This document shows, in pieces, positions 24,166-41,739 of a stretch of DNA of 41,739 bases. The stretch lies in the IMG/VR virus record IMGVR_UViG_3300011140_000001, positions 1 through 41,739 of that record. One strand, given 5' to 3'. The notes under the pieces are model-generated. The model did not search any database. It had not been told where the DNA came from and worked only from the letters and a program-made list of their open reading frames with translations. The stretch comes from a virus. The translations under genes were made by a program, and so were the position numbers. Position 1 is the first letter of the stretch; each line of letters opens with the position of its first letter.

Positions 24166-24187
24166 AAATTTGTTGTTAAAAATCAAT

Positions 24188-24225
24188 AAGCTGAAAGGTT
24201 CCAGTAACCTTTTGGCTTGTTTTTT
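24188..24225 (+). terminator. Terminator just downstream of the tRNA fragment
   Basis: AAGCtgAAAGGTT ccagt AACCTTTtgGCTT, then G and TTTTTT. Confidence 0.7.
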
Positions 24226-24379
24226 ATTGTCGATAGGTCAGCTATGGATATTCAAAATATCCATATTTCACATTAAAAAACGCTTTATATTTCCGTGCCG
24301 CCGCCAAAAAAGTGGGTGTCATTTGTACATCTTCAATTTTTGTCGGCAGTGCGCCACCATGAAATTTGGAGTGTTAAAA

Positions 24380-25393
24380 ATGCAGAAACCGACCCGTCGC
24401 GGCAACGCTTGGCGTATTGAAGTTCGTTTTAAGGGCAAGCGCTACGCTGCCACTCGTGACACAGCAAGTGAGTGTGAACAGTGGGCAGCAACCAAACTAT
24501 TAGAATTACAGTCTGAACAACCAACATCAGAACCTGAAAAAATCCATATTTCTTTTCAAGCCCTTTTTGATAAGTATTATCAAGATGAAGGTCGCAAAAT
24601 GAAAAGCGCCCGTTTAATTGTGCAAATGCTTAAATGCTTAAAGAAAAATTGGGGCGAACTTGCAGATGAATCTATACACAACCTAACTCCTGCCCTAGTC
24701 AAGCAATGGCGTGATAAGCGCCTAAAACAAGTTAAAGGTGCAACAGTCATTCGAGAAATGGCTATGTATAGTTCAGTTTTTGACTTTGCAAGAAAAGAAC
24801 TATTTTTAACTAAAGAAAATCCATTCAAAGAAATTACAAAGCCTTCAGCACCTCCGCCAAGGCACCAACGTATTAGCGATGACCATATTAATAAGGTAAT
24901 TAAAGGCTTGGATTATGAATGGGGTAAAACACCAACACAGCCGAGACACCGTGTCGCGTGGTCTTTTCTATTCGCCCTTGAGACAGCAATGCGTAAAGGT
25001 GAAATTCTAAGCGTACAAAAGTCACTAATCTTTACCGACTTTATCCGACTATTAGACACCAAGAACGGCTCATCTCGTGACGTACCCCTAACAGCTAAAG
25101 CAAAAGAAATGCTTTCTTGGTTGCCAGACGATCTAAACGATAGTCGTATGGTCCCTTTAACATCAAACGCATTTAGACTTATTTGGCAGCGTAATTTACG
25201 CCGTGTTGGGTTAGATGGGGTTATTACTTTTCACGATTCAAGACACGAAGCAATCACTCGCTTTGTTCATGACTATCGTTTGCCTGTTGAGATTCTTGCT
25301 AAAATTACAGGGCACAAAACTATTAGTGTATTAGTTAATACATATTACAATCCGACTGCATCTGAAATAGCCAAAATGCTAAACGCCGCATAA
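24380..25393 (+). CDS. int: Tyrosine integrase
   Basis: The catalytic set: R in ETAMRKGE, HDSRHEAITRF, and GHKT...NTYYNP with the Tyr. The start is taken at MQKPTRR, with GGAG 8 nt upstream. The 70-codon TTG extension in the ORF track runs through a terminator. Confidence 0.9.
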   Translation: MQKPTRRGNAWRIEVRFKGKRYAATRDTASECEQWAATKLLELQSEQPTSEPEKIHISFQALFDKYYQDEGRKMKSARLIVQMLKCLKKNWGELADESIHNLTPALVKQWRDKRLKQVKGATVIREMAMYSSVFDFARKELFLTKENPFKEITKPSAPPPRHQRISDDHINKVIKGLDYEWGKTPTQPRHRVAWSFLFALETAMRKGEILSVQKSLIFTDFIRLLDTKNGSSRDVPLTAKAKEMLSWLPDDLNDSRMVPLTSNAFRLIWQRNLRRVGLDGVITFHDSRHEAITRFVHDYRLPVEILAKITGHKTISVLVNTYYNPTASEIAKMLNAA

Positions 25394-25755: not shown

Positions 25756-26304
25756 TTATGCGATCCGGTTGCTAATCCAACCATAGAAGAATTGCTCTTG
25801 CGTGGGATTGCGTTCGCAAATTTCAATATAACGTTGCCCTTGCATAATGTTCAGAACTTTAAGCATCACTTTCTCACCGTCTTTACCACGTTTAGCAAGG
25901 AAAATTTTTAATGCCCCTAACGTAGCTGACCCATAAATACCATCAATGGCTAAATCAGGCCAACCGCCTTTACCTTGGTTATTCAATAGATTCAATGCAC
26001 GTTGTAATAAAGGCTTTGCGAAAGCTACTCCACAGTTAACACCAGTATCAAGCAACTCTTCAGCAATTAAAGGAGATAAGGTATTAACCTGGTCAAAACG
26101 CGGATTAATCCAATATTGCTGTTTATAAATTTGCTTTGCCAAATCCAAAGGTAAATCACGCATTGGACCTTTCCAACCATTTACACGCGCAACTGCTTCA
26201 GTGATTCCATAATTAGTTGCACCGCCACGGTCGTTAGGGTTATTTACAAAACCACCTTCACGTTTGATAAGATCATCAATATATTTTTCTACTGACATTT
26301 GCAC
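25756..26304 (-). CDS. Endolysin (GH108-type muramidase with a PG_binding_3-like C-terminal domain)
   Basis: The N-terminus LIKREGGFVNNPNDRGGATNYGIT is the GH108 signature. It follows the holin-like gene. Confidence 0.85.
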   Translation of the reverse strand: MQMSVEKYIDDLIKREGGFVNNPNDRGGATNYGITEAVARVNGWKGPMRDLPLDLAKQIYKQQYWINPRFDQVNTLSPLIAEELLDTGVNCGVAFAKPLLQRALNLLNNQGKGGWPDLAIDGIYGSATLGALKIFLAKRGKDGEKVMLKVLNIMQGQRYIEICERNPTQEQFFYGWISNRIA

Positions 26305-26801: not shown

Positions 26802-29093
26802 TTAAAGATCAACCCAGTTCGTCCATGCGCCATTCACATATGATCGACTACTATTCGAACCGGGTGCTGTACTATAAGCGATCTGCTTACCTTCGGTTTC
26901 ATTTGTCTGTATCCATTGAATAGCTCCGTAAAAATAACTGCCGTTCGGACATGAACGACCCGAAACTTCATCTTCGCCAGTAATTGTCACTTGAGCAAAA
27001 CGAACACCACCACTGACAAACTTAAAAGTATCTAAAGATTTATTTATGATAGAGATATCGTTATTACCAATACCATACTTGTAAGATAAATCCCCCCAAG
27101 GTGACCATGCGCCATTCCTGTACTGTGAAACAAACTGTCTAAATCCACCATCTGAATAGAAAAAATCAGTCAATATAAGTAAACCGGTATCTTCAAAATC
27201 GTTTGCCATCGGCAACCATTGCACATTCCCGTAGAAGTCCTTATTTTTGTAAAAATCGGGTAATGATGCGTTTGCTGCTGAATTTGATGTAATTGTCACA
27301 ACTGCGGTTCTAAACCCGCCATTTTTAAAGTGAAAATCTTTAACAGATTTATTTTCAATGAATGTACCATTTGAGCCAATTCCCATTTTTGAAAGCGAAA
27401 GTTCAGCAACGCCTTGCTTAGCTACATCAATTGAAGTTTCCGTAAACCAACTCTGAACATCCCACGTGAAAAAAGGACTTTGGTTAACATATTCTCGATA
27501 TGATTGTTCAATGAAACCGCTGATATAGTTATAAGAGTTTTGATAAGTGTCAATTGGATTTGATTTTTCTGGAGAATACCAGCCAACTGCTTTGCCATCT
27601 GGTAAACGAGCATCGTCACGTTTTAAGTGTTCGCCACTGTATCCATAGCATTTAAAAGATTCACATGCCAACATATAGAAGGAGCATGAGCCATCAATAT
27701 GACCAAATCCAAATACACGTGTACGAGTTAATTTGTTTGTAACCGGATCATCAGCAAATCCTTTATCTGCGTACCACCCAATATTCACATGACGAGCATC
27801 AAAATTGAATACTTTGTGGTTATACATACCGTAAGCAGAGCCGTTAATTGAACGCGGGATATTCGATTTAATACCAATGTCAATATTTGCGGGGAAATAC
27901 CCATTTAAAACCATGAAACATGCTGATCGACGCAAAGATGTGTCCATCGGGTCATCTGTTTTTTCATAACCTAATGCTATACCAATCTGACCAGTTGAGC
28001 CTTTCCCATCCATAGCCAAAGTATCTTTAAATTCAACACGATCACGTAAGATACGGATGTATGTTAAATTATTTACTGTTGATACAAAACTAGCACCATT
28101 CATCGTCACTTCTGTGCGATCTGTTGGCATCCCCCAGTCTGCAGGATTTGGGACTGCATTAAAAACTAGCGTATTATCAATACGACATTTGAATGCTTTC
28201 TCAAAACCATAGCATGTGATTGCATTTGCCAATGCATAATCTATACATTTTTGGGCTCTTGTTGACTGATCGATATTATCATCAGTTACACCAAAGTGCT
28301 CAAACTTCAAATTGTCTTGTAATACCCACGTGCCAGATGCAACATTTGACGCTATGTAAGTACCGTCATTGTCGACTTTGCTTGAAAGTGATTCAAAACG
28401 ATAAATACCACCGCCGAAACCTTTTTTTGTATGACAGTTTGTCCGAACAAGTTGCCCATCTTTACGTACGTTTAACTGACGTAAGGCAGACACGTCTTGA
28501 ACTTCTTGAATATTTTTATCGTTAATCTCTTTTTGATTTTCTACCCCATCTGCTATAAGTTCCGCTAACCAACCTCTTTCAATTACAATATTTGTTATGC
28601 GATTAGCTAGGTCTTTTGAATATGAATCTATTTGATCAAGTGCTAACCCTTGTTCTCTGATTTGATTTTGAATCGCCTGATCTAAAATCTCTAAAGCTTT
28701 ATCGCGAGATAATTTTTCTAATCCCAGTGAATGCGCCCATTCTTGCAAGATAGAAGTTAACTTATCCAGGGAATGTTCGATAGCATCTGGATAGAAGTTA
28801 TCATAGTTAGTTATATCTAACGCCTGATCAACAGGAGTTTCACCTGCAATATAAAATTGAAATCCTACAACTGGTGCATTTAAAAAAGTAATATAACCGC
28901 CCAAGTTATCTTCATTAAGCGTTACCGTATAAAGATTTTCATCAACATTTTCGAAATCGGCCCCTACTTGATGCTTTACAGAAACACCCGTAGCATCCTC
29001 CTGATTAAAAACGCGAAAGGTAAAATCAAAACGTGTATTAGTCCCATTACCTTCGTACAAAGGACTAAGCCGTTCAGTAACAGAAACAGTCAT
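26802..29093 (-). CDS. Tail fibre / tailspike with two tandem C-terminal knob-like domains
   Basis: The start is taken at MTVSVTERLSPLYEGNGTNTRFDFTF (RBS GGTGAG). The central part is beta-rich. Two C-terminal repeats each end in NGAW(S/T)xW(G/V)DL. Confidence 0.8.
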   Translation of the reverse strand: MTVSVTERLSPLYEGNGTNTRFDFTFRVFNQEDATGVSVKHQVGADFENVDENLYTVTLNEDNLGGYITFLNAPVVGFQFYIAGETPVDQALDITNYDNFYPDAIEHSLDKLTSILQEWAHSLGLEKLSRDKALEILDQAIQNQIREQGLALDQIDSYSKDLANRITNIVIERGWLAELIADGVENQKEINDKNIQEVQDVSALRQLNVRKDGQLVRTNCHTKKGFGGGIYRFESLSSKVDNDGTYIASNVASGTWVLQDNLKFEHFGVTDDNIDQSTRAQKCIDYALANAITCYGFEKAFKCRIDNTLVFNAVPNPADWGMPTDRTEVTMNGASFVSTVNNLTYIRILRDRVEFKDTLAMDGKGSTGQIGIALGYEKTDDPMDTSLRRSACFMVLNGYFPANIDIGIKSNIPRSINGSAYGMYNHKVFNFDARHVNIGWYADKGFADDPVTNKLTRTRVFGFGHIDGSCSFYMLACESFKCYGYSGEHLKRDDARLPDGKAVGWYSPEKSNPIDTYQNSYNYISGFIEQSYREYVNQSPFFTWDVQSWFTETSIDVAKQGVAELSLSKMGIGSNGTFIENKSVKDFHFKNGGFRTAVVTITSNSAANASLPDFYKNKDFYGNVQWLPMANDFEDTGLLILTDFFYSDGGFRQFVSQYRNGAWSPWGDLSYKYGIGNNDISIINKSLDTFKFVSGGVRFAQVTITGEDEVSGRSCPNGSYFYGAIQWIQTNETEGKQIAYSTAPGSNSSRSYVNGAWTNWVDL

Positions 29094-29104
29094 AAACTCA
29101 CCAA

Positions 29105-29130
29105 TAAAAAAGGCCGTATTCTCTACAGCC
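29105..29130 (-). terminator. Terminator upstream of the tail fibre gene
   Basis: On the minus strand GGCTGTA gagaa TACGGCC (one G-U pair) is followed by TTTTTTATT. Confidence 0.7.
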
Positions 29131-29193
29131 AATTTTAGGTAAGCTTACAAATAATAGGATGGTTACAGATCGTGCAGTGTCAACAGACACTTA

Positions 29194-29549: not shown

Positions 29550-32500
29550 TTACTTATCATCTTCAGATGCATGTTTTCCTGTAATCGTTCCGCGAGTTGC
29601 ATCGTAAATGCTGTCTGGTGCGTCCTTCTTACCTTGAGCTACATCTAGCCAATACCCAAAAGGCTTACCCAAAACAGCAAACGGGATACCAGTAGCAAGC
29701 GTCGCTGTATTCATTAAGTCTTTTGCCGCTTTACTTTGGTTTACTTCTTTGTCCTCATCCAAGGAACGTTTGAAATGTTGAATCAATGAAAGTCCACTTT
29801 CACCCATGCTGAACACTGGTGAAGCGGTATAACGGTCATTCATCACATTATTATCGGTGTTGCTAATCGCAGCGTTTACCACGTTACCCGCATAAGGAAC
29901 GAACGCAGAGAGCATTTTTAATTGTGATAAAGCGAGTCTTGCAGAAAGGTCATCCCACTTTTCGCCGTCTTTATCGTCATCTTGTAAACCGCCTGCAAAT
30001 ATTACACTTAGCAATTCAGACAACATAGAAGGGATTGAAACCATCATCAACGCAACATAGGCCAATCTAGGCGAAGCTTGCACCCATGAACCGTTACTTG
30101 CTTCAAGAGCTAACTTCGCTTCCGAAACAGATGTATTCCAAACCATATTGAACCAGTTGTAAAACATCAAAAACATACGTTTAGCAGGTGTACCGCGTTC
30201 AAGATTTGAAATACCTTCAGGTGACATATCTGTCATGTATTGGCGAATAACCGCATCAGCTGCATGCACTGCGTCATACTGTGTATATCCCTGCTCCGTG
30301 TAATGATTGAATGCAGCTTGCCAAGAAATCATTTCCATTGGTCGTTGTATCGTTGTTTGCAATACATAGGCATGTTTCATGGTGAAATCTTTCACTGTTT
30401 GAATTGCACCCTTTTGGAAAACAATTTCGTCCACGGCATAACGATATTCATCGGCCGCACGATCGAACCGTGTTTTCATGAAGTCAGACATTTCCATAAT
30501 GTTATTTGCCATGTCTTCACGCGTAGCCACAGACGTAAAATAATGTGCCTGTGCTTTCAGCAATTGTTTAGGCGGTACCGCCACTGAAACTTGTGTAAAC
30601 CCTGTGAATTGTTCAATGGCGTTTTTCAAGTTACCTGCCATAATTGCAATACCTGTATTACGACGTAACACACGGAAAATATTATCTAGCAAATGAACCC
30701 CTGAGCTTTCATCAACGGTCTGATTTGCGATTGCTTTTAACCAAGGGTTAAAGACTTGCTTAACACCGAAAGGCATCACACGTTCAATTTCATTTCTGAA
30801 ATCTTTATTTAGTAATAAACGTCCGATTTGTCGAATCTGTAATTCAAGATGAATGTAGCGCAGCTCTTTATCAAGATGACTTGGTAAACGGGACATATCC
30901 AATTCAAGTTGATCGTGATATCGATCCGCACGTGACTTAGTGAAGTTTGCGCCAGTGGTTGCAATATCTAAAGCCTGCAAGTTGTTTTCGGCTAAATTTT
31001 TATCTTGAATGCGGTCTTGCTCGTTTGAGCGCATACGGTCATAAGCAGCCGGCACATAGCCGCCTTCATACTCCCCAAAAGGCGTACTAATTGGTGTACG
31101 TGGTAACTCATCAAAATATCGACCGTTAATTTTCTTATGCGTGATTTGCGCTTGCTCTTTGTACTTATCAAATAGATTCCAAAGTTTTTGGATAGTATCC
31201 ATATCATTTTTGGTAATCACATTTTCATTAATCATACGATTAAAGAATTTATCCCAAGCACTGAAATCAACAGAGCCATCTTCTAGACGTGCGCCCCAAC
31301 CATAACCCAAAACTAAACGCTCTTTGTTGCTCATATTGCCTGTATGCAAAATGGCATGAAGTAAGGACTGTTTACCCACGAATGTAAAATTATTCAATTC
31401 AGGTGCGGCAATTTTTGAGTTATCCAACTTACCGAAACCTTCAAAGGTATCGACCACTTCTTTAAGCATTTTGGCCTTTTCAGTTCTGTATTTAGCCAAC
31501 GCGTCTTGCATAGGGTTGACTAAATAAGTGCGGAATTTACCGCTTGGCCCACCATCTAACCAAGTCACCACCTGGTCAACACGTTTTGCTGAAGCACCTA
31601 ATTCCATGAATTTTGCTTTGAGTTCGGCAGTCTTGTTTTTGCCAAGTAGATTTTGCTGAATTTTCTCAATACTTTTTTTGCCGCTTGATTGCTGTATTAG
31701 TTCTTCACGGACATGTTCACGTTCAAAAGCTTCATTGGTTGTATGCCAAATCTTATTTTCTTTAGATCGATGCCAAAGCGTTTCAACTGCCGACATAACG
31801 GCATTAAATTGCTCAAGCGTTAATTCACGATAGTTTTGGTTTTCAGGTAATGCGCCGATGTTCTGGATTTCAGCATAAGTGGTCGGGTCGTATTTACGAA
31901 TTAACTCTAATTGATGCTCGTAATTTGTAGATTCGCGGCCAAGATCATATTTACCCAAAATGCCACGTGCAGCGGTCACAAAATCAAAGTCACGGTTTTT
32001 AGCCAACTTCTCATTATTGCCAAAAACCTTCTTAACCATATCAAGGTGTTTTTGAATTTGGTCTTTTGCATCGTAACTGTATTTAGTCGCATAGAACTGT
32101 ACCAACTGGTTACGCTTATGGCGTGCGGCTTCTACGGTTTCACCCTTACGGAATGCATCATTAGCCATTCGCCCTAAACGTGCATCATCTTGTGCACGTA
32201 CATGTGGTCGAATATCTTTAATTTTTTGGCGCTGTACAATGTCTTGTGCAACCGCTTTTGCTGCTTCATTCAAAGCAGACTTACGACCAAGTAAACCATT
32301 TAGCGCGGCCATTTCTGCGGACAGCATGCGCGCACGAACATCATTGTGTAATGCTGCTTCAACTGCTTCAACAATACTTTGTTGATCGAAAAATTCAGAA
32401 TATTGCACAGCCATGCGCGCATCCGTGAGCTCATCAATTTTTTGCTTAGGACTTGGTGAATTAAGCAAATCACGAATCAATGCATCACCGCTTTCATAAC

Positions 32501-35500
32501 CGAACATTTCAGCAACAACATCGGGGTTTTCACCTCCACGCTGCGCAAAGCCATATGCACCTTTAGAAATGCTTTGGTAAATGTCACTGTCACGGCCGTA
32601 TTTAGCTTCTATCCAATCGAGTGACAATTTGCCTTTAGTTGTACGGCCTTCTGCAAAGCGTTGCAATAAATCCATGTCTTGCGAATAGTCTAATAATTCA
32701 GGGTCCACTTGATTAGAATATTGATTAACGCCGCGCAACTGGTCCGCAAACTTATCTTCAAGTTCGCTTGTATCAAATTTGCCGTGTTCATCTAAAGTTA
32801 AATACCCTTCTTCGCTAAGCTTCTCAGCCATTGATTCAATCGACAGGCCTTTTACTTTTGATTTTGAAGAACGCACAACAGGCTTGTTGCCAATACCTGA
32901 TTTTGTTTTAGAGGCCTCATCAATACCCCAAGTACTTTCTACTTCATTAGCATCCAGTCCGCCAAACTTGGCAATTGCTTCAAATAAATTATCGCGTTCA
33001 GGTTCAACCTTTGTTGAATCGCGTTTAACAACAGGGTCAAGCGGTTGACGTAGAAATGCCATAGCTTGATATACAGGTTCTTGCGCAATTTCTTTTGCCA
33101 TATCTTCACGAACGGCAGCGCGTTTTTTATCTGCTTCTTTTTGCAATGTTTTCAAATACTTAGACTTTTGTTTTTGGTACCAAACCATATTTCGAAGTGA
33201 TTTTTGCTCTAATGTATTTATAGATAATTCTGTAGCAATTTCATGATCTTGGCGCATTTCGTCATAATCTTTTGGCGAAATTCCAAGGCGCATTGCATCA
33301 TCTTGATGAATTAACATTTCAAGATTTGACGCGGCTTGTGCTTCAGCAATAGCGCTTGATGATGCAAGCATGCGGTCCATTACACCCGTAATATCGTTGT
33401 TCAATTCTGCACGGTCATTGATACCCATAAACTTTTCAATGTTCCGGTACACAGCAATCATGAATTGTCTGAAGCGATTGAAAACTTGCTTTAACGCCGC
33501 GCTTGGTGCTTTACCTGTAAATACATACTGTTCAAAAGTTTCTGCAAATTTTTCATGTACTTCTGTTTTTTCTGCATCGGTGAAAAAGTCCCACTCGCCA
33601 AGATCGGTTGTTTCTGGTGATGCCCACTTCATTACTGTTTCCATGTCAGCACGGACTTGTGCGGGCGCATCGGGACTTAATGCAAGTTCCATATTCATTT
33701 CTAAGAAATGATGCCCAAGCTCATGCACAAATGTAGAGAAGTCTGCATTTTTGCTTAGAACAATTGTTGAACCATCTTGACCAATTGTGAAAGTAATTGA
33801 ACCGCGTGTACCACCATTCGCTTGATTATATTTACGACCGTTTGGTGCACGGTACATGCTTTCAGAAATTTCATAGTCTTTATTGCGACCTTTGTTTTCA
33901 ACAAAACCAAGTTTTTTATAAAAATCTGTAAGTCTTTTTTTATTACTACCAAAATCAGAACTAGGCGTAAGGGCAATAGTTTTATTTTGTGAGTCTGCAT
34001 ATTTAATAATATCTTGCATTGCATTTGTACCAGTGCCTTGATTGCGCATTGCTTCAGGCACAACGATTTTATGCAATGAAAGAACATTACTTGATGGGCT
34101 ACCTTTTAGACCTAATTCAATTCCATATTGTTTTTTAATACTCTTAACAAAATCATCTACTGAGATTGTTTGTTCTGGTGTAGCACTTTGATTAAATGAA
34201 GTGCCCTTATCCGTGGTAGGCTCATCTGCAATACGAATCGGGTAACGGTCAAAAGCATCTTTTGCACTAATACCAAGTTTATCGCCCAAGGTTGAATAGA
34301 AAGCGGAAGTTAATTCCCCCGCAGCACGATTATACTTAGCTGTAAATGTTCCAACTTTAGCCAATTGGTTTTGCACTTCAGTCGCTACTAGCTCCTTAGC
34401 ACTTTCCGCATTTTCAAAACGCGCTTGCTCAGCCATATATGTATTGGCTTCTTGCTGCATTTGCTCAGTGGTTTTTGCAAGATTCTCTTGCGCTTCACGG
34501 TAAGTCGGCATATTAGGGTCTGAACGGACATTCTCAACAAAATCTGTTGGATGCTCAATGACAGACATTGCGGATACAAACTCATCTACGGGTATTTGCA
34601 CAGTGCCATTAAATGTTTCAGCGGTACCCAATTGATCTTGCAGACTCGGCGCACGTTCAAATAAATCGGTCGGCTCAATGTTGCGATCACGCAATAACTG
34701 GTTGAACGTTTGCCCATCTATGTAGACTTCGTTAACTGCACCGTGTTCTTCGATAGCTTGTTTAATAAAGGCTTGACTTGCGGCTTCATCACGCTGTGCC
34801 GTTTTACTCTCTTTATTGTTATCGATAAGATTATTAAGCACAGCAGCAAACGTGGTTGAGCGAACCGCATCTTGTTGCTGATCTGCTCTTAATTGGTCTA
34901 ATGCAAATTGTGCTGTACGCTGATTTTTAACTTTTTCAGCAGACATTATCGCCACTTCAGGCGCAGTGGTTGCAACCTCTAATAAACCCTCAAGGGCCAT
35001 TTCAACAGGGTCTGCCTTTTCTCCAACTGCATCGGCTGCACCTTTTACGGAATACATACCCGCAGCGGATTGAATGACAGCTTGACCACCTACAGTACGC
35101 AAAGGGCCGCCAAAAGTTACAGGCATTAACGCACCGCCTAAGGCTGAATATTTAACTGAACCCCAAGTTTTTGCAGCTGCATAATCAATCTGTTCTTGGC
35201 GAGTTAAGAACTTCTCACGGGCTTCTGCCATATTCTGCCCATATGACACCAAAGCATCTGCCGTGCCTGCACCTAATGCGCCTTGTGCTGCATTCCCTGC
35301 CGCAGTTACACCACGAACTAAATTAGCTGCCTTTTCTAAGTTCATCACCATTGGGGCGTATTTAGCTGTATTTCGGATAAGCGAATTTGATAAAAGCCCA
35401 CCCGCCCCCGCGCCTGCCCAATACCCAGCTAAAGCCGGAGGAGCTTGTTCAATTAAAAATTCACTTACTAGGCCCGCATCGGCATTGCTAACCAACTCTT

Positions 35501-36374
35501 GCGCAGCACCCAATACACCTGCATCATTTGTCTGTGCTGCAAGCTGCGCTTGATAAAGCGCTTGTGACATTTCTTGAGATGGTGCCGCTCTGTTTTTAAC
35601 ACGTGTTGCTAAATTAAGTAGGCTATCGTTTCCAGTGGCCGCATTGATTACTGCACCTTCAGTTTGACCAATTGCAGCTACAGCACGAATAGCCGCATTT
35701 ACGTATCGATTACCTTGCTCCTGTGGGTTAGAAGGTTCAGCGCTTGCAGTATGCTCCATCCAATAGACTTGGTTTTCATAATATTTTTTAAACCGTTCGG
35801 CAGACATTACACCCGCATTTTTCTTAATACGGTCATAGTTTTCTTTGAACACTTGCTCCGACGTTTGAGGAACTAATGTTGTGCTTAATGTATCTAATAA
35901 ATTAGGGTTAACATTTGGCTTGATCTGTTTTTGCGGTTCTTCGTAAACACCAAGTTCTTTTAATCGCTTTTTTTGTTCTGGTGAAGTGCCTTTATTTAAG
36001 ACTTGTTGGATGTCTTGATAAGTAATATTTTCATGCGGTTTATTAAGGCTTGAACCGAGTAACGAAACTTTATCACTAATGCCTTTTAGATTTTCAAAGT
36101 CATCAAGTGAAACCGCCGCTTGACTTGGGTTAAGAGCATATTTACCCAAGACAGGATCACTAGCAATAACTTCATTCACTCGTTTTTGTGTGTTGATTTC
36201 GTCAGCAACAGATACGACTTGCTCAGGACTTTCTGTTATTTTGCTGTAATCTAGCCCCAATGAGCGCGCAGCTTTTTGTGCACGGGCTTCAGTGTCCGCA
36301 ATTTGCGTTGGATTTTTGCCTTGGTTTAGTTCAAATAATTGACCAATTGTAAGATTTGCATTTTGATCAGACAT
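29550..36374 (-). CDS. Giant internal virion / ejection protein (T7 gp16 position) with embedded GNAT-like and HExxH metallopeptidase-like modules
   Basis: 2274 aa. GNAT motif VVPEAMRNQGTGTNAMQDII…FYKKLGF (residues ~737-828). HELGH at residues 884-888. Gly/Ala-rich hydrophobic region at ~220-480. Hydrophobic helices near the C-terminus. Confidence 0.8.
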   Translation of the reverse strand: MSDQNANLTIGQLFELNQGKNPTQIADTEARAQKAARSLGLDYSKITESPEQVVSVADEINTQKRVNEVIASDPVLGKYALNPSQAAVSLDDFENLKGISDKVSLLGSSLNKPHENITYQDIQQVLNKGTSPEQKKRLKELGVYEEPQKQIKPNVNPNLLDTLSTTLVPQTSEQVFKENYDRIKKNAGVMSAERFKKYYENQVYWMEHTASAEPSNPQEQGNRYVNAAIRAVAAIGQTEGAVINAATGNDSLLNLATRVKNRAAPSQEMSQALYQAQLAAQTNDAGVLGAAQELVSNADAGLVSEFLIEQAPPALAGYWAGAGAGGLLSNSLIRNTAKYAPMVMNLEKAANLVRGVTAAGNAAQGALGAGTADALVSYGQNMAEAREKFLTRQEQIDYAAAKTWGSVKYSALGGALMPVTFGGPLRTVGGQAVIQSAAGMYSVKGAADAVGEKADPVEMALEGLLEVATTAPEVAIMSAEKVKNQRTAQFALDQLRADQQQDAVRSTTFAAVLNNLIDNNKESKTAQRDEAASQAFIKQAIEEHGAVNEVYIDGQTFNQLLRDRNIEPTDLFERAPSLQDQLGTAETFNGTVQIPVDEFVSAMSVIEHPTDFVENVRSDPNMPTYREAQENLAKTTEQMQQEANTYMAEQARFENAESAKELVATEVQNQLAKVGTFTAKYNRAAGELTSAFYSTLGDKLGISAKDAFDRYPIRIADEPTTDKGTSFNQSATPEQTISVDDFVKSIKKQYGIELGLKGSPSSNVLSLHKIVVPEAMRNQGTGTNAMQDIIKYADSQNKTIALTPSSDFGSNKKRLTDFYKKLGFVENKGRNKDYEISESMYRAPNGRKYNQANGGTRGSITFTIGQDGSTIVLSKNADFSTFVHELGHHFLEMNMELALSPDAPAQVRADMETVMKWASPETTDLGEWDFFTDAEKTEVHEKFAETFEQYVFTGKAPSAALKQVFNRFRQFMIAVYRNIEKFMGINDRAELNNDITGVMDRMLASSSAIAEAQAASNLEMLIHQDDAMRLGISPKDYDEMRQDHEIATELSINTLEQKSLRNMVWYQKQKSKYLKTLQKEADKKRAAVREDMAKEIAQEPVYQAMAFLRQPLDPVVKRDSTKVEPERDNLFEAIAKFGGLDANEVESTWGIDEASKTKSGIGNKPVVRSSKSKVKGLSIESMAEKLSEEGYLTLDEHGKFDTSELEDKFADQLRGVNQYSNQVDPELLDYSQDMDLLQRFAEGRTTKGKLSLDWIEAKYGRDSDIYQSISKGAYGFAQRGGENPDVVAEMFGYESGDALIRDLLNSPSPKQKIDELTDARMAVQYSEFFDQQSIVEAVEAALHNDVRARMLSAEMAALNGLLGRKSALNEAAKAVAQDIVQRQKIKDIRPHVRAQDDARLGRMANDAFRKGETVEAARHKRNQLVQFYATKYSYDAKDQIQKHLDMVKKVFGNNEKLAKNRDFDFVTAARGILGKYDLGRESTNYEHQLELIRKYDPTTYAEIQNIGALPENQNYRELTLEQFNAVMSAVETLWHRSKENKIWHTTNEAFEREHVREELIQQSSGKKSIEKIQQNLLGKNKTAELKAKFMELGASAKRVDQVVTWLDGGPSGKFRTYLVNPMQDALAKYRTEKAKMLKEVVDTFEGFGKLDNSKIAAPELNNFTFVGKQSLLHAILHTGNMSNKERLVLGYGWGARLEDGSVDFSAWDKFFNRMINENVITKNDMDTIQKLWNLFDKYKEQAQITHKKINGRYFDELPRTPISTPFGEYEGGYVPAAYDRMRSNEQDRIQDKNLAENNLQALDIATTGANFTKSRADRYHDQLELDMSRLPSHLDKELRYIHLELQIRQIGRLLLNKDFRNEIERVMPFGVKQVFNPWLKAIANQTVDESSGVHLLDNIFRVLRRNTGIAIMAGNLKNAIEQFTGFTQVSVAVPPKQLLKAQAHYFTSVATREDMANNIMEMSDFMKTRFDRAADEYRYAVDEIVFQKGAIQTVKDFTMKHAYVLQTTIQRPMEMISWQAAFNHYTEQGYTQYDAVHAADAVIRQYMTDMSPEGISNLERGTPAKRMFLMFYNWFNMVWNTSVSEAKLALEASNGSWVQASPRLAYVALMMVSIPSMLSELLSVIFAGGLQDDDKDGEKWDDLSARLALSQLKMLSAFVPYAGNVVNAAISNTDNNVMNDRYTASPVFSMGESGLSLIQHFKRSLDEDKEVNQSKAAKDLMNTATLATGIPFAVLGKPFGYWLDVAQGKKDAPDSIYDATRGTITGKHASEDDK

Positions 36375-36452: not shown

Positions 36453-37148
36453 TTAACTATTCAGTCCGCCCATCAAACTATCGCAAACCTGTTTTTGGTT
36501 TTCGGAATAGTCCATTCTAAATAAGTTACTTGTTCCGCCAGAACCACTACTTGACTGCCAAATCCCATACACTGCTTTTTTATTAGGCGAAGTTAAAAGA
36601 TAAGCTTCTTCAAAGTTCAATGCACCGAAATTTTTTTCACACACTTTTTTAAATTTAATATTTGCTTTAGTTAAAGACTTAAATGGGGAAAATTCACAAT
36701 TATCAAAATTTTCACCAAAACAGATATTTTCATTTTCACGTGATACCGTGGCAGGGTATAGAGAAATTGTGTTTGGACCAAATTTACCAACGGTACCCTC
36801 CATCATTACTGACCAAGGAAGTTCATAAGTACGATGGTCTACAATAGTGCTTTTCTTGCCAAGAACATTTACACGTGCAACACCCTTTCTACTTGAATGA
36901 AAAGTTCCATCTTCTAACTTTTTCTCAACATAAAAACTATCTAGCCAGATAATAGATTTATCATTAGAACGAAAATCCCAATATAGCTTTTCTTCATTTT
37001 TGTTGGGCATTAATTTATAAACTAATTGACCAAATTCCTGTTGAGGTAATTTTTTTAAAGTAACTGGGTATGGTTGTAAAGCAGCTTCAGCCGAAAAAAC
37101 TTGTAAAGGTAGAGCTAAAGTGCAGACCATTAAAAAACTTCGTTTCAC
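36453..37148 (-). CDS. Secreted (Sec signal peptide) Cys-containing protein of unknown function
   Basis: The GTG start overlaps the upstream stop (TAGTG) and has AGAAGAGG upstream. The signal is MKRSFLMVCTLALPLQVFSA / EAA. There are four Cys in the mature part. Confidence 0.65.
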   Translation of the reverse strand: MKRSFLMVCTLALPLQVFSAEAALQPYPVTLKKLPQQEFGQLVYKLMPNKNEEKLYWDFRSNDKSIIWLDSFYVEKKLEDGTFHSSRKGVARVNVLGKKSTIVDHRTYELPWSVMMEGTVGKFGPNTISLYPATVSRENENICFGENFDNCEFSPFKSLTKANIKFKKVCEKNFGALNFEEAYLLTSPNKKAVYGIWQSSSGSGGTSNLFRMDYSENQKQVCDSLMGGLNS

Positions 37149-39400
37149 TAGAAACCTCTTCTCATCATTGAATAATAAGCATTGATATATTCAGCATCCG
37201 TTACGTTATTCGGATTTCTACCCTGCTTTTTAAATATGTTATCAATTTTTGTTCTCATTGAGTCAGTAATATCGCTCTTACTTTTAACCTGATTATAAAC
37301 GCGATTCAATTCAACCTTATCATCAAAGAAAGGTCTTGAAGTGGTAATTTGAACTTGACGATTAACATTCTTCAATACAACACGATTCACTTGATCCCAA
37401 GTTAAATGACTCCCGTTTTTCGCTTCAGCTTCTAATAACGTTTGCATTAAATCTGTTTTAACAGCGTTATAGTGTTCTAACTGCTTTTTATCAGTAGTGC
37501 TAGTAATGCCGATCATTCCCAAATATGGTTTTAAAGCACTTGATATAGTAGAGTCATTTACCAAAAATGTTTCTTCTTCTTTTTTCTTGGCGTCCTTTAA
37601 ACCGTTTACTTCAGCATAAACCTTGGTTACTTCTTTATAATCAGTAGGCGATAATTTATCAGCATATTGATGTAGTACTGATTGCGGTTTACCTTTCAAT
37701 AATTCATCTTTATTCAGCATTATCATACTTAAAGTAATTGGGTCGGTTTTAACATCTTTTTCGTATGTTGCCTTACTTACTGACTTTAAACTATTAATTT
37801 GATTTGGTTCTAGGGCTGTGATATTTGCAGCGGGGATTTGCTCAAATGTGTATTGCCCAGAAATAATTCCATTGTACAAACTGCTATAGCTTTGATCTTG
37901 TTTATCCTTCTTGGCTTTATCGAGCCCACTATAATATCGATCAGTTGCTACTAAAGCTTTTTGCTTTACTTCAACAGGAGCGTTGCTATTCCAAATTTCG
38001 TTGTATGCAGATTCACGGGATTTAGCAGGTTGATTTGCATATTTGCCAAAATCATTTGTTAGCCATTTATCAATTCGTTGAATATAGTTTCGAGTTTCTG
38101 AAGCAGGTGGTTGCCCCCCTTTGAGAACTGCTGAAGCTGCATTAGCACCACCGTTGTAATAAGCAGCAATAACAATTGGGTCTTTAGTTTTATATTTTTT
38201 ACTAATCCAGTCTATAAAATCTAAAGAAGCGTCGATCGTATCTGCAGGATTATTAATATCTCGTTTACCACCGTTACTATATTCTTTCCAAGTATCAGGC
38301 ATAAATTGCATTACTGATTTTGCACCCTTCGGGGAGACTGCATCATTATTTGATTTTTCACCAGATAATCGAATAGCAAGTAAAAGCGGTGCTGCCCATT
38401 CCATGCCTTTTTCTTTTGCAGCATGAACGGTGTAAACATCTAAACGCTGATCATTGTATTTAATGTTTTTCATTTGATCAGGTGTAAGATTTTTAAGCTC
38501 TTGAGCAATTTTTGCAGATGCTTGAGGCGGAACATTTAAAGCAGGGTTACTACCTTCCTGCGTACCTGTTGTTGCGATATTAACTAATGCTTCAACTTGT
38601 TGGTCTTCTAACTTCTGATGAATGCGCTGATCTACTCTAAAGCTATCCGCTAATGATATTTCATCTTTATATTTATTTTTATACGCGAGAGCCGCTTTTA
38701 AATCTCCGTTTTCTACAAAAGCACTGATATTGGTAATGTGAGCACCAGAAACGTTTTTAAGATAAATATTATCTGCCTCTGTTGCTGCCTTGCCTTCCAA
38801 ATTCATGAGCTTACCTAAAGAAGCTTTTAGGTTAGCCCGACTCTCATCAATTTTATTGAAGTCACCAGGGTTATCATTTATCTCACGAATAAATCGATCC
38901 GCTGAAGAAGAATAAACGCTTTGTTGGTAAGTATCGTTTTCACGTACAAAATAGTTTTGTAATGAGCCTTTAAATTGCACTGCATCTTGAGCGGCCATCT
39001 CTTTAAATAATGAACGTTGGCGGTTGTTTCCAAGAGTGCTTACGATTTCTCCCACACCATCTTGGTATGCTTTAGCATAGTAATCTACAAAGCCGCCGCC
39101 GTTTCCATCATCAAAGCTAACAACATCCACGCCTTTTTTATTTATGTAACCATCGACTTCGTTGTTCTGTAGGTGTTGTTTTAGTTCTGCGAGTTTATTT
39201 TGCGCATCAATAACACGCACACGATCCGCTTCATCTTGATATTCTTGGTAAGCTTTTAATCCTGAGTTTAGCGCACCTACTAAACCATCTGTTCTGTTAC
39301 CGACTAAACTTGCAGCTCCACTTGGAGATACACCGCCAGAAACTTGAACACTAGGCACACTGTTATCTGAAACTTGACGATTAAATTGTGGTATACGCAT
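37148..39400 (-). CDS. Internal virion protein with a lytic transglycosylase (SLT) domain (T7 gp15 position)
   Basis: LSGEKS…SPKGAKSVMQFMPDTW…AAYYNGG at residues ~340-420 is the SLT signature. Confidence 0.85.
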   Translation of the reverse strand: MRIPQFNRQVSDNSVPSVQVSGGVSPSGAASLVGNRTDGLVGALNSGLKAYQEYQDEADRVRVIDAQNKLAELKQHLQNNEVDGYINKKGVDVVSFDDGNGGGFVDYYAKAYQDGVGEIVSTLGNNRQRSLFKEMAAQDAVQFKGSLQNYFVRENDTYQQSVYSSSADRFIREINDNPGDFNKIDESRANLKASLGKLMNLEGKAATEADNIYLKNVSGAHITNISAFVENGDLKAALAYKNKYKDEISLADSFRVDQRIHQKLEDQQVEALVNIATTGTQEGSNPALNVPPQASAKIAQELKNLTPDQMKNIKYNDQRLDVYTVHAAKEKGMEWAAPLLLAIRLSGEKSNNDAVSPKGAKSVMQFMPDTWKEYSNGGKRDINNPADTIDASLDFIDWISKKYKTKDPIVIAAYYNGGANAASAVLKGGQPPASETRNYIQRIDKWLTNDFGKYANQPAKSRESAYNEIWNSNAPVEVKQKALVATDRYYSGLDKAKKDKQDQSYSSLYNGIISGQYTFEQIPAANITALEPNQINSLKSVSKATYEKDVKTDPITLSMIMLNKDELLKGKPQSVLHQYADKLSPTDYKEVTKVYAEVNGLKDAKKKEEETFLVNDSTISSALKPYLGMIGITSTTDKKQLEHYNAVKTDLMQTLLEAEAKNGSHLTWDQVNRVVLKNVNRQVQITTSRPFFDDKVELNRVYNQVKSKSDITDSMRTKIDNIFKKQGRNPNNVTDAEYINAYYSMMRRGF

Positions 39401-40023
39401 TAACTAGCTCCGAACCAATTCCAATTATAATTTTGCCAAGATGCGCCTTGGGTACCATTGCCTGCGTTATAGAGACTTGATGCAAAGTCAGAACCGCTGC
39501 CCAACGAAGAACTTTCCGCTTGACCACCCAAACTACCTTTGCCCATGCTTGACCCATATGCTGACGCAGCATTCCCTGCTAAGCTTAAAAGCGTGCTTGT
39601 TAATGGTCTAATTGATTTTGCGGCAACACGATAATTTTCGGCTTGATTTCTAAAGTTTGTTTCTTGAACCTTATGGCCCCATGACTGCAAAGCGGCATTG
39701 TACTTAATCGAATCGATATCACCTTGCGCAAGCATTTCAGTAGATGCAAGTAAATCGACAGCCGAACCTTGAGTTACATCAATCCCATTTTCAGCGAGCG
39801 CGTTTATTTGGCTTGATTTAAATGCCGAAACATTACGTTGGTAATCGGTTACAGCATTAGTTCCATCTTCAATAGCTTGCCGCGCTTGATTATCCGAGAG
39901 CGTCGCATTAGATAAAGCAAGTTGTTCTTGCTGTTGAAGCGCCTTTTTTTGAGCTTTTAATTTGCCATAAGTAGATAGCGCCTCTACCCCCTTTACAGCA
40001 GCAAATGCATATGGATTTATCAT
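39400..40023 (-). CDS. Internal virion protein (T7 gp14 position)
   Basis: 207 aa, helical and Ala/Gln-rich, with a Gly/Ser-rich tail. The assignment rests on position. Confidence 0.5.
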   Translation of the reverse strand: MINPYAFAAVKGVEALSTYGKLKAQKKALQQQEQLALSNATLSDNQARQAIEDGTNAVTDYQRNVSAFKSSQINALAENGIDVTQGSAVDLLASTEMLAQGDIDSIKYNAALQSWGHKVQETNFRNQAENYRVAAKSIRPLTSTLLSLAGNAASAYGSSMGKGSLGGQAESSSLGSGSDFASSLYNAGNGTQGASWQNYNWNWFGAS

Positions 40024-40490
40024 GCTGCCCCCATTACAAACGGATGAAATAATTCATTGTTATTGCCGTAAGCTTCAGGGGCTTTTAGATCAAATCCTAA
40101 TTTTCTAAGAAAGCGAATTGCCTTTGCATTTTTCACATATACGTGATTAATGAGCACATCGTATTCCGACTTGATCTCATTCAAGATATTTTTAGATTGT
40201 TTATAAAACTCGATCGGATATTGCTTAATAAAATTGGTGCCAAGCAGCCAAGGGCAACCAACATTGCCAAGCAAGCTCGACATTCCGACACCACAAATGA
40301 AAAGCAACTTTCCATTAACTACTACGGTCCAAGCATCACTTGAATGCTTAATAGACATTTTAATCATCCAATGATAGTTATCATTGAAATATGCTTTCAT
40401 CTCATCTTTATCGGCTTCACGCAGGTTTTCAACAAGAATACGAATATCGCGCTCAGTCGGCTTACGAATTTCAATATTGTTTTTTCTCAT
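40020..40490 (-). CDS. Internal virion protein A-like (T7 gp13 position), possibly GNAT-like fold
   Basis: 156 aa. The C-terminal part, VYVKNAKAIRFLRKLGF, resembles the GNAT C-terminal signature. The assignment rests on position. Confidence 0.45.
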   Translation of the reverse strand: MRKNNIEIRKPTERDIRILVENLREADKDEMKAYFNDNYHWMIKMSIKHSSDAWTVVVNGKLLFICGVGMSSLLGNVGCPWLLGTNFIKQYPIEFYKQSKNILNEIKSEYDVLINHVYVKNAKAIRFLRKLGFDLKAPEAYGNNNELFHPFVMGAA

Positions 40491-41739
40491 TTGTATTCAA
40501 CCTCTAATGCCAATAACTTCATAGGTAAAGGTTTATCATGTTTTACAGTAATTTGAATGTCTCTTTCGTAAGTGCTGTCAACTGGTATTTCTACAAAGCC
40601 TGATATTAAATTTAATGGCGCTCCGTATGGTTCAAGATTACGGGGTTTGTATTCATCAATATCTGTAGGATTTGCAATCTCTTGATTCGCACCGACAAGA
40701 ATATTTTGTGTTTCACGAACTCTTAAAAACACTTTATTCACGACTTTCGGCTTAGTCGGACTGCTTTGTTCTCTATAAATCGGCAAGGTCTGCATTTCTG
40801 CTACATATGGCAAGCCAACTAAAACATTTGATAGTTTACGAGTAAGTTTAATTTTTCCATCTGTAACGACCGCTTCAGGCTTTACACCGCCATCAGCAAA
40901 TATAGAAACAGTTTGCCCTTCTAACCAATCCAATCCATTTAAAACATCCGTTGGTTCGCCTTTATATTGGATACTGCTGTCCAGATAACATTTATCTTTC
41001 ATGTCTAGTGGTTGGCGTGTGAGCATCCGTTCAATGGTGTAAAAACCATTACGCTCAATGAACGCATATAGAACAGATTGATCATCTTCAGGTATCTCAG
41101 CTACAGACAGAAATTTGCCGTCTGTGTGATGCTCTGCCCAAGCCCATACTTGTTGTTGCGGCTCGTAGGTTAATGAAAGCAACGCCCCATCATCTCGCAC
41201 AAAATATATAATATTCAATGGGTTGCGTATTGCAGCACAGTCTACAATTTTATGCCCATCAAAAAGTTGTGGACACATAATCGATAAATCTAGTGTCTGA
41301 TAAAAAGAAGCATTGTAACCACTTGCTAAAGATGCTTCATGCACATGGCCTGTTTGATCAGAAGCAAATACCGCTGCGCCATCCACTTCTACGGGTGTAA
41401 CATCATTCGCACCTGTACTGTATTGTTTATTCATGTTTACGCTTGCTGCGGTCATAGCCCCATCAGACGAAAGCTTCCACAAAGCGCCGCTAGTTAAAAC
41501 GAGTAAATCATTCAAAGTAATTAAGTGCTTAACGCCGTTACCATCACGGGCAGCAAACCGTATTTGGATTGAGTCAGTATCTTGCGTAGGAATGTGATAT
41601 CCGAAATTGTCGTCTGTTGCCGTGCGTGACATACGTATCCATTGCGGCGATTTGTACCCACCACCATAGACTTTACGTTGCCCATGGTAAGCAACTGCGG
41701 TGGGGTTAAATTCGAAAGGATTTCGGATTAATGGCGGGG
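40487..41739 (-). CDS. Tail tubular protein B-like, C-terminal part of the gene that starts at 861 (the unique part ends at 41662)
   Basis: The frame is open from 41662 (GGT GGG TAC AAA TCG…) down to the stop at 40487. The Met at 41632 in the ORF track is internal. Confidence 0.8.
   Translation of the reverse strand, partial: PPLIRNPFEFNPTAVAYHGQRKVYGGGYKSPQWIRMSRTATDDNFGYHIPTQDTDSIQIRFAARDGNGVKHLITLNDLLVLTSGALWKLSSDGAMTAASVNMNKQYSTGANDVTPVEVDGAAVFASDQTGHVHEASLASGYNASFYQTLDLSIMCPQLFDGHKIVDCAAIRNPLNIIYFVRDDGALLSLTYEPQQQVWAWAEHHTDGKFLSVAEIPEDDQSVLYAFIERNGFYTIERMLTRQPLDMKDKCYLDSSIQYKGEPTDVLNGLDWLEGQTVSIFADGGVKPEAVVTDGKIKLTRKLSNVLVGLPYVAEMQTLPIYREQSSPTKPKVVNKVFLRVRETQNILVGANQEIANPTDIDEYKPRNLEPYGAPLNLISGFVEIPVDSTYERDIQITVKHDKPLPMKLLALEVEYK
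41663..41739. repeat. Right copy of the 77-nt terminal overlap (identical to 1-77)
   Basis: Same 77-mer as 1-77. It lies inside an open reading frame. Confidence 0.97.

Follow-up and report, generated by a model that had tools for sequence, protein, structure and literature searches.

Polyvalent proteins, as described by Iyer et al. 2017 (PMC5512222), are giant multidomain proteins encoded among virion genes; zincin-like domains, for which autoprocessing was argued, are the commonest of their domains, and a GNAT family of gammaproteobacterial prophage polyvalent proteins, with ART-PolyVal as a neighbour, has already been described among them. Residues 700–1000 of phage BPP-1 Bbp10 are a seed of the zincin-like 'CLCA_X' family, which has the consensus HExxHxxxD and which FFAS and HHalign connect with the metalloprotease domain of CLCA, a domain that cleaves itself (Lenart et al. 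2013, PMC3650047); Bbp10 is also listed as a divergent homologue of T7 IVP-D (gp16) by Hardies et al. 2016. The subject of this report is a protein of the same kind, encoded by an open reading frame (ORF) of 2274 codons (29550..36374, minus strand) in IMG/VR virus record IMGVR_UViG_3300011140_000001, a stretch of 41,739 nucleotides hereafter called the window. Its sequence identifies it as a polyvalent internal-virion (ejection-type) protein. Just upstream of a widely conserved HExxH domain, it contains a slot whose contents differ between related Acinetobacter prophages and which, in the window, holds a minimal GNAT fold.

The assignment to the LPD22-bearing group of polyvalent proteins follows from the LPD22 domain together with the T7-like synteny of the gene. 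LPD22, a hallmark of phage-type polyvalent proteins, occupies residues 22–103 (36066..36311, minus strand; PF18834, 29.2 bits against a cut-off of 28.6), while the order of genes around the giant gene is that of T7, gp12-13-14-15-16-17, as is also annotated around the giant-protein homologue of Pseudomonas phage PfDIW6. The whole length of the protein matches phrog_9880 (PHROG 9880), and LPD22 recurs in 16 of 19 diverse family members as well as in the homologues of phages BPP-1, CP2 and AF. Those 19 members also carry ART-PolyVal, PBECR5, MuF_C, Zeta toxin, RelA/SpoT and ParB-N domains, and the homologue in phage Ab9 combines GNAT with PBECR5. The likeness to the proteins of Iyer et al. 2017 (PMC5512222) therefore lies in the size and multidomain build, in the setting between same-strand internal-virion and tail genes, in LPD22, a RimI-like GNAT and an HExxH domain, and in the ART, PBECR, MuF_C, Zeta toxin and RelA/SpoT domains of the relatives; the difference is that the HExxH domain of the window falls outside the Pfam MPTase-PolyVal model. 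The initial annotation, made from the letters of the window, had read the ORF as a giant ejection protein with enzymes fused into it, in the manner of the polyvalent proteins. That central reading is supported by LPD22, synteny and the GNAT. The ORF itself is real, on the minus strand, which had been left unstated, and every motif quoted for it occurs once, at the residues given; the region singled out (33495–34166) corresponds to residues 737–960. Two short overlapping ORFs (33370–33711, plus strand; 33755–34087, minus strand) were set aside, since the giant frame shows both conservation and purifying selection. Architecture, GNAT family, LPD22 domain and the zincin-like reading of HExxH are already in the literature, and the slot leaves the classification of 2017 (Iyer, PMC5512222) unchanged. 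What the present analysis adds is a defined and recently exchanged effector slot in Acinetobacter prophages, the motif at its borders, the size of the family that shares the HExxH core, and the finding that this core has no detectable solved or curated relative.

Among described proteins, Bbp10 affords the most direct comparison. It aligns by tblastn with residues 524–2256 (26% identity, 71% of the query) and shares LPD22, an HExxH at residue 797, the HExxHxxx[E/D] pattern and the placement of an effector directly upstream, that effector being PBECR1, so that the slot holds an RNase rather than a GNAT. Among the tblastn matches listed, the homologue of Acinetobacter phage Ab9 reaches 42% identity; a further GenBank phage record, lower in rank than these, aligns with a portion of the protein at 80–90% identity. 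No DNA near-identical to the window was found among GenBank phages, and the whole protein has no match among PDB sequences.

The slot was delimited by blastp and blastn comparison with relatives. The swappable cassette spans residues ~716–848 (33831..34229, minus strand), with junctions at residues 715–729 on the left and 847–853 on the right, and in the closest set the flanks (residue 1 to ~715–730 and ~847–853 to the end) share 91–95% protein identity. Its contents were surveyed in an IMG/VR scan of 48 related Acinetobacter prophage loci, representatives being classified by Pfam scan and the remaining loci by signature and length. The window-type GNAT fills the slot at 26 loci and is followed by a long ART-PolyVal at 6 more and at one partial locus; ART-PolyVal stands alone at 4 (in two length variants), an unrelated GNAT occurs at 3, a PBECR3 RNase-like domain at 2 and MuF_C at 1, and at 5 loci there is a linker of ~40 residues only. 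The giant gene differs from that of the closest IMG/VR relative (L001) by 8.3% of its nucleotides; the longest mismatch-free tract between them, 443 nt at 33814–34256 (residues 707–853), coincides with the cassette, whose guanine-plus-cytosine (GC) content in the window is 34%, compared with 40–44% in the flanks. The identical tract and the lower GC content together indicate that the cassette alone was exchanged horizontally and that this happened recently. Direct DNA repeats were considered as a recombination device and rejected, none being found at the cassette flanks beyond chance. A limited literature search yielded no description of a fixed-position cassette polymorphism in near-identical Acinetobacter prophages.

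Both borders of the cassette carry the pattern [FY][NKQ]Q[SATNGM], as F727-N-Q-S on the left (34185..34196, minus strand) and Y849-N-Q-A on the right (33819..33830, minus strand), and these are its only two sites in 2274 residues. In relatives no cassette border lacks the pattern, and the junction of two cassettes in tandem has it too: a GNAT+ART tandem relative (L032) has it exactly three times (727, 849, 1085), once per border, and an empty-slot relative has it at 727 and 751. Of the right border motif, Q851 is shared by 92% of 150 distant members of the family, with R857-G858 coming after it. The motif is possibly a processing site or a recombination joint; I retain it as a candidate and do not count it as a finding.

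The occupant of the slot in the window is a minimal GNAT fold at residues ~739–842 (33849..34160, minus strand), in agreement with the initial annotation, whose GNAT-like module is borne out by profile, motif and fold alike. The excised segment scores 24.3–24.9 bits against the Pfam Acetyltransf_1 cut-off of 20.7, with weaker matches to three further GNAT families and a weak NCBIfam match to RimI; the Acetyltransf_1 profile is matched over its C-terminal half only (56–116 of 116). The acetyl-CoA pyrophosphate-binding loop R777-N-Q-G780-T-G782 (R-x-x-G-x-G; 34029..34046, minus strand) lies in RNQGTGTNAM, residues 777–786 (34017–34046), and FYKKLGF forms residues 818–824. Homologues of the segment numbered 23, of which 19 were aligned with it. 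In this 20-sequence alignment G780 and Tyr819 are invariant, R777 and G782 are conserved in at least 90%, and the family has a C-terminal motif of its own, FGFVENKGRNKD-x-x-ISESMYR. The profile built from the alignment retrieves almost exclusively GNAT enzymes from PDB sequences, at marginal E-values. The AlphaFold (AF2) model of the module (pLDDT 85.9, ~105 ordered residues) runs helix, two strands, helix, strand, helix, strand(s), and all 50 of its 50 best Foldseek matches in the PDB are GNATs (probability 1.00, E from 7e-4; TM-score on the query 0.43–0.52), among them PaiA, Ard1, Naa50, GCN5, AtaT and TacT, that is, protein N-acetyltransferases and tRNA-acetylating toxins. The ratio of nonsynonymous to synonymous substitution rates (dN/dS) in the module, 0.08–0.14, denotes purifying selection, and the same GNAT family adjoins ART-PolyVal in other polyvalent proteins. 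Sequence and model thus identify residues ~739–842 as a GNAT-fold domain with an intact cofactor site, for which acetyltransferase catalysis is predicted. As to its origin, derivation from the gp13-like (IVP-A) GNAT-like protein encoded nearby was rejected, hhalign showing no specific relation, and hhalign likewise led to rejection of kinship with the alternative GNAT of another locus (L028).

A very small prophage GNAT of established function is AcrVA5 of Moraxella bovoculi prophages (PDB 6IUF), an anti-CRISPR protein with a 96-residue chain that inactivates Cas12a by lysine acetylation. The profile of the GNAT cassette family matches it weakly (E 0.058), no more strongly than many other GNATs. 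AcrVA5 differs in being a free-standing early gene product and not part of a virion protein, and nothing ties the GNAT of the window to CRISPR.

The region that follows the slot, residues ~851–1010 (33345..33824, minus strand), is the N-terminal part of a core shared by the whole family. Many GenBank podophage homologues, among the tblastn matches listed, align solely from residue ~843–870 onward, so the conserved core begins with the HExxH domain. Residues 840–1100, used as the query of an exhaustive HMMER search, retrieved 8081 cluster representatives at E<=1e-3, of which 5225 also pass E<=1e-10. The conservation figures are based on the top 150; nearly all of these are proteins of 1900–3600 residues with the domain in mid-protein. 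The motif H884-E-L-G-H888 (33711..33725, minus strand) lies in FVHELGHHF, residues 882–890, and is followed by E892, giving HExxHxxxE. H884, E885 and H888 are each kept in 148–149 of the 150 representatives (99%), position 892 is E or D in 138 (92%), D910 and W928 are conserved in 98% and 99%, H940, E941, A944 and E948 are present in all 150 (100%), and Y950 in 143 (95%). These last five residues belong to the helix H940-E941-x-x-A944-x-x-F-E948-x-Y950 (33525..33557, minus strand), a candidate source of the third metal ligand, which takes in the EKFAETFEQY of the initial annotation (residues 941–950). There the HELGHH had been placed correctly (33708–33725), and only the spacing from FYKKLGF to FVHELGHHF needs a trivial change, from 56 to 57 residues. 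HExxH occurs once in the giant protein, where its composition would lead one to expect 0.035 occurrences, and a chance origin of the motifs was rejected because HExxH is kept in 149 of the 150 representatives. It is also kept in ten GenBank phages of eight host genera (Acinetobacter, Bordetella, Limnohabitans, Pseudomonas, Vibrio, Caulobacter, Xanthomonas and Nostoc), and dN/dS across the domain is 0.04–0.11. Word-index homologue searches with the HExxH region gave 4 matches from the single sequence and 10 from the alignment, all of them fragments.

Two of the homologues have a second HExxH 200–340 residues upstream of the conserved one, at residue 807 in Pseudomonas phage AF (VVMHEVQHA) and at residue 926 in Xanthomonas phage CP2 (VVLHEVLHG); Pfam gave no match for it in either phage. 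A third homologue, of 3125 residues, lies in a podophage-like module of Limnohabitans phage DC33 (PQ492659.1), a record whose taxonomy reads Inoviridae, yet that label is probably a mis-assignment.

In the AF2 model of the HExxH domain (pLDDT 86.4), two short strands precede the HExxH helix, which is followed by two short helices, the HE-x-x-A-x-x-FE-x-Y helix and then long helices; HExxH lies within predicted helix 40–59 of the model and the H940–Y950 stretch within helix 94–114. Candidate third metal ligands are E892 (E/D in 92%) and, on helix 94–114, E941 and E948 (both 100%). The invariant set HExxHxxxE ... D ... W ... HExxAxxFExY looks like the site of a metal-dependent hydrolase, and the reading as a metal-dependent peptidase is plausible and has precedent, its basis being the motif itself and profile comparisons in the literature. 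The link of CLCA_X to proven proteases (CLCA_N with its self-cleavage, M64) is itself one of profile comparison, and it was not reproduced here.

The remainder of the protein fits only in part what had been said of it. Residues ~200–500 (34875..35777, minus strand) are Gly/Ala-rich as claimed (G+A 28–34% per 100 residues), but they are weakly hydrophobic at most, with a mean hydropathy of ~0. The C-terminal hydrophobic helices reduce to one strong transmembrane-like segment, residues 2107–2125 (30000..30056, minus strand; Kyte-Doolittle 19-residue mean 1.89), and a few weaker ones; the C-terminal half of the giant protein is long and helical. It contains no cysteine at all, which may reflect passage in unfolded form through the tail channel and the periplasm.

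The explanation that I consider best, and rather probable, is that the giant protein belongs to the polyvalent internal virion proteins and comes from a temperate Acinetobacter podophage with a T7-like tail, its slot carrying an effector and its HExxH domain serving in processing. By analogy with T7 gp16 (IVP-D), it would travel inside the capsid and leave it together with the DNA, and its C-terminal half would contribute to a conduit spanning the envelope. The slot enzyme would then serve as an early effector in the newly infected cell; the GNAT would acetylate a host protein, most likely a component of defence or of translation, at the expense of host acetyl-CoA, with the acetylation of Cas12a by AcrVA5 as a functional precedent for so small a prophage enzyme. 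The HExxH domain would be a zincin-type protease cutting the polyprotein in cis, and the cuts may fall at the conserved Phe/Tyr-Asn/Lys-Gln motifs bordering the cassettes, freeing the effector from the structural part.

Like T7 gp16, the giant gene comes after gp13-like, gp14-like and large internal protein genes and before the tail fibre gene, which agrees with the gp16 position given to it by the initial annotation. It differs from T7 gp16 in being 1.7 times longer, in having LPD22, an effector slot and the HExxH domain, and in that its transglycosylase is not N-terminal but resides on the preceding large gene, Pfam detecting no SLT domain in the giant protein itself. For packaging, an analogy is offered by gp47 of phi24B (bioRxiv 10.64898/2026.04.10.717836), a 2811-residue polyvalent protein. 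Proteomics showed it to be plentiful in virions although the reconstruction does not reveal it, and it has been proposed as an ejection protein carried inside the capsid. It too is a giant LPD-containing protein of a temperate podophage, with different domains (LPD5, LPD1, LPD38), and it is absent from the tblastn matches listed for the window protein. A literature search for virion proteomics of direct homologues (CP2, phiGT1) gave nothing usable. The arrangement of exchangeable effectors on one chain beside a processing protease, here proposed for the window protein, follows the same logic as MARTX toxins and Photorhabdus virulence cassette payloads. The delivery machines are unrelated, and the built-in protease of MARTX is of the cysteine class.

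A number of results weigh against the proposal. As regards the relation to T7 gp16, hhalign of four family sub-profiles against the single T7 gp16 sequence gave at best P 0.002, with a probability of 13.8% over 55 columns (the single T7 gp15 sequence was likewise not significant). As regards the GNAT, a scan of the full-length protein leaves Acetyltransf_1 just under its cut-off (20.1 vs 20.7 bits), and the AF2 model of the module lacks the N-terminal beta1-alpha1-alpha2 arm of the fold, hence its description as a minimal, truncated GNAT. The border motif, found twice with 0.68 occurrences expected (P ~0.15), is not significant by its count alone, striking though its placement is. Further points concern the HExxH domain. 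Neither MPTase-PolyVal nor any other Pfam model recognises it, no consistent Pfam peptidase match was obtained for the window or for 37 members, and NCBIfam gave no peptidase match either. Profile searches of PDB sequences, with the whole domain or the core only, returned no zincin and matched coiled-coil noise such as eL29; hhalign to the metallopeptidase region of the N4 vRNAP was insignificant (P 0.03); and two strands, not three, precede the HExxH helix in the model. With that model, Foldseek found no peptidase among its PDB matches (best E 0.85) and, in BFVD, only homologous giant phage proteins. Of the two folds by whose absence the initial annotation would have been refuted, predicted structures and Foldseek have accordingly recovered the GNAT and have yielded no zincin, so that the support for its metallopeptidase-like module comes from the motif, from the conservation of the motif and from the published profile-profile work on Bbp10.

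Other readings give the HExxH domain a different role. It might not be autoprocessing and might itself be an effector or an envelope-breaching hydrolase, acting on peptidoglycan peptides, lipoproteins or a host defence protein and complementing the SLT transglycosylase. No part of the family core is better conserved than this domain, and proteins with an empty slot still have it, which favours a function beyond cassette release; the characterised relatives named by Lenart et al. 2013 (PMC3650047), CLCA_N, M64 and M3, are secreted proteases; the authors of the phi24B preprint suggest that a peptidase-like domain of the giant virion protein of that phage has a role at the peptidoglycan; and an effector role is among the options of Iyer et al. 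2017 (PMC5512222). On the other hand, neither the known cell-wall peptidases nor any hydrolase of solved structure showed similarity to the domain, and proteins with an empty slot could need processing elsewhere along their length. Moreover, known peptidoglycan metallopeptidases mostly have motifs other than HExxH. On balance I hold this reading to be unlikely.

The model could also be taken to mean that the HExxH domain is a non-catalytic and possibly metal-stabilised helical module of the ejection conduit, its motif being conserved for structural reasons. The model is indeed almost wholly helical and runs into a 60-residue helix, and the mere two short strands ahead of the motif helix and the failure to match a zincin fold point the same way; but the invariant H, E, H, E/D, D, W, H, E, E and Y form a polar set typical of active sites and not of helix packing, and profile-profile links to zincins have been published, which together make a purely structural role distinctly improbable. 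Very unlikely, too, is the notion that the GNAT does not act on the host and either has a GNAT-like fold that is degenerate or structural, as seems to be the case for T7 gp13 (IVP-A), or modifies some phage component: the module is N-terminally truncated, the same gene module already includes an internal virion protein that resembles a GNAT and for which no catalysis is known, and the slot can be empty, which makes the cassette dispensable for virion function, but the acetyl-CoA loop and the family-specific C-terminal motif are strongly conserved with dN/dS ~0.1, the alternative occupants of the slot are toxin-like (ART, RNase) as are the Zeta toxin and RelA/SpoT domains elsewhere in the family, hhalign reveals no specific relation to gp13, and AcrVA5, a GNAT of comparable size, is active.

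The proposal of a slot effector beside a processing HExxH domain can be carried further. In its boldest form the giant protein would be a plug-and-play polyprotein, from which cleavage in cis by the HExxH domain at the border motifs releases a GNAT, an ADP-ribosyltransferase, an RNase or a tandem of effectors, each disabling a different host defence, the GNAT in the manner of AcrVA5; as a whole this chain of assumptions is doubtful. Equally speculative, and to be entertained with little confidence, is the idea that the exchange of cassettes among otherwise near-identical Acinetobacter prophages mirrors, on the side of the phage, the turnover of defence islands. Should the favoured mechanism be true, Acinetobacter prophages would amount to a natural experiment in which one delivery scaffold presents at least six alternative payloads at one position, and both the action of injected enzymes in the first minutes of infection and the defences that they counter would become addressable in a clinically important genus. 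The slot could also serve in engineering therapeutic phages that co-inject chosen enzymes. The HExxH domain deserves attention in its own right, as it heads the core of thousands of podophage giant proteins while having no Pfam model and no solved relative.

Of the genes around the giant gene that are described here, all but the integrase gene lie on the minus strand. Upstream lie, in order, the tail nozzle gene (40487–41632; PHROG and Pfam annotation), the genes of a T7 gp13-like internal virion protein (40020–40490; PF11090 Phage_T7_Gp13, 28.7 bits; phrog_308) and of a T7 gp14-like one (39400–40023; phrog_418), and that of a 750-residue internal virion protein (37148–39400; phrog_10475 / phrog_342, 'internal virion protein with endolysin domain'). 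The last contains an SLT domain (PF01464, E 2.6e-9) and confirms the claim that the transglycosylase sits on the preceding large gene; between it and the giant gene there is an ORF of 231 residues of unknown function (36453–37148; phrog_24752), which has no counterpart at this position in T7. Downstream is a tail fibre or spike gene (26802–29132), the N-terminus of whose product matches phrog_1640 and other tail-fibre PHROGs, followed by a GH108/PG_binding_3 endolysin gene (25756–26304) and, on the plus strand, an integrase gene (24170–25393). Relatives sit in the chromosomes of Acinetobacter proteolyticus, A. higginsii, A. tandoii and Acinetobacter sp. ANC 3929, and a fragment 94% identical carries a name from A. 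baumannii. The integrase, the endolysin and the chromosomal relatives therefore identify the window as a temperate Acinetobacter podophage or prophage. It is a temperate phage that combines an integrase and a GH108 endolysin with Autographiviridae-like ejection genes. Finally, the T7 gp13-like protein of the window has weak matches to GNAT profiles (Acetyltransf_3, E 0.061; FR47, E 0.15), in keeping with the acetyltransferase matches noted for T7 IVP-A by Hardies et al. 2016.

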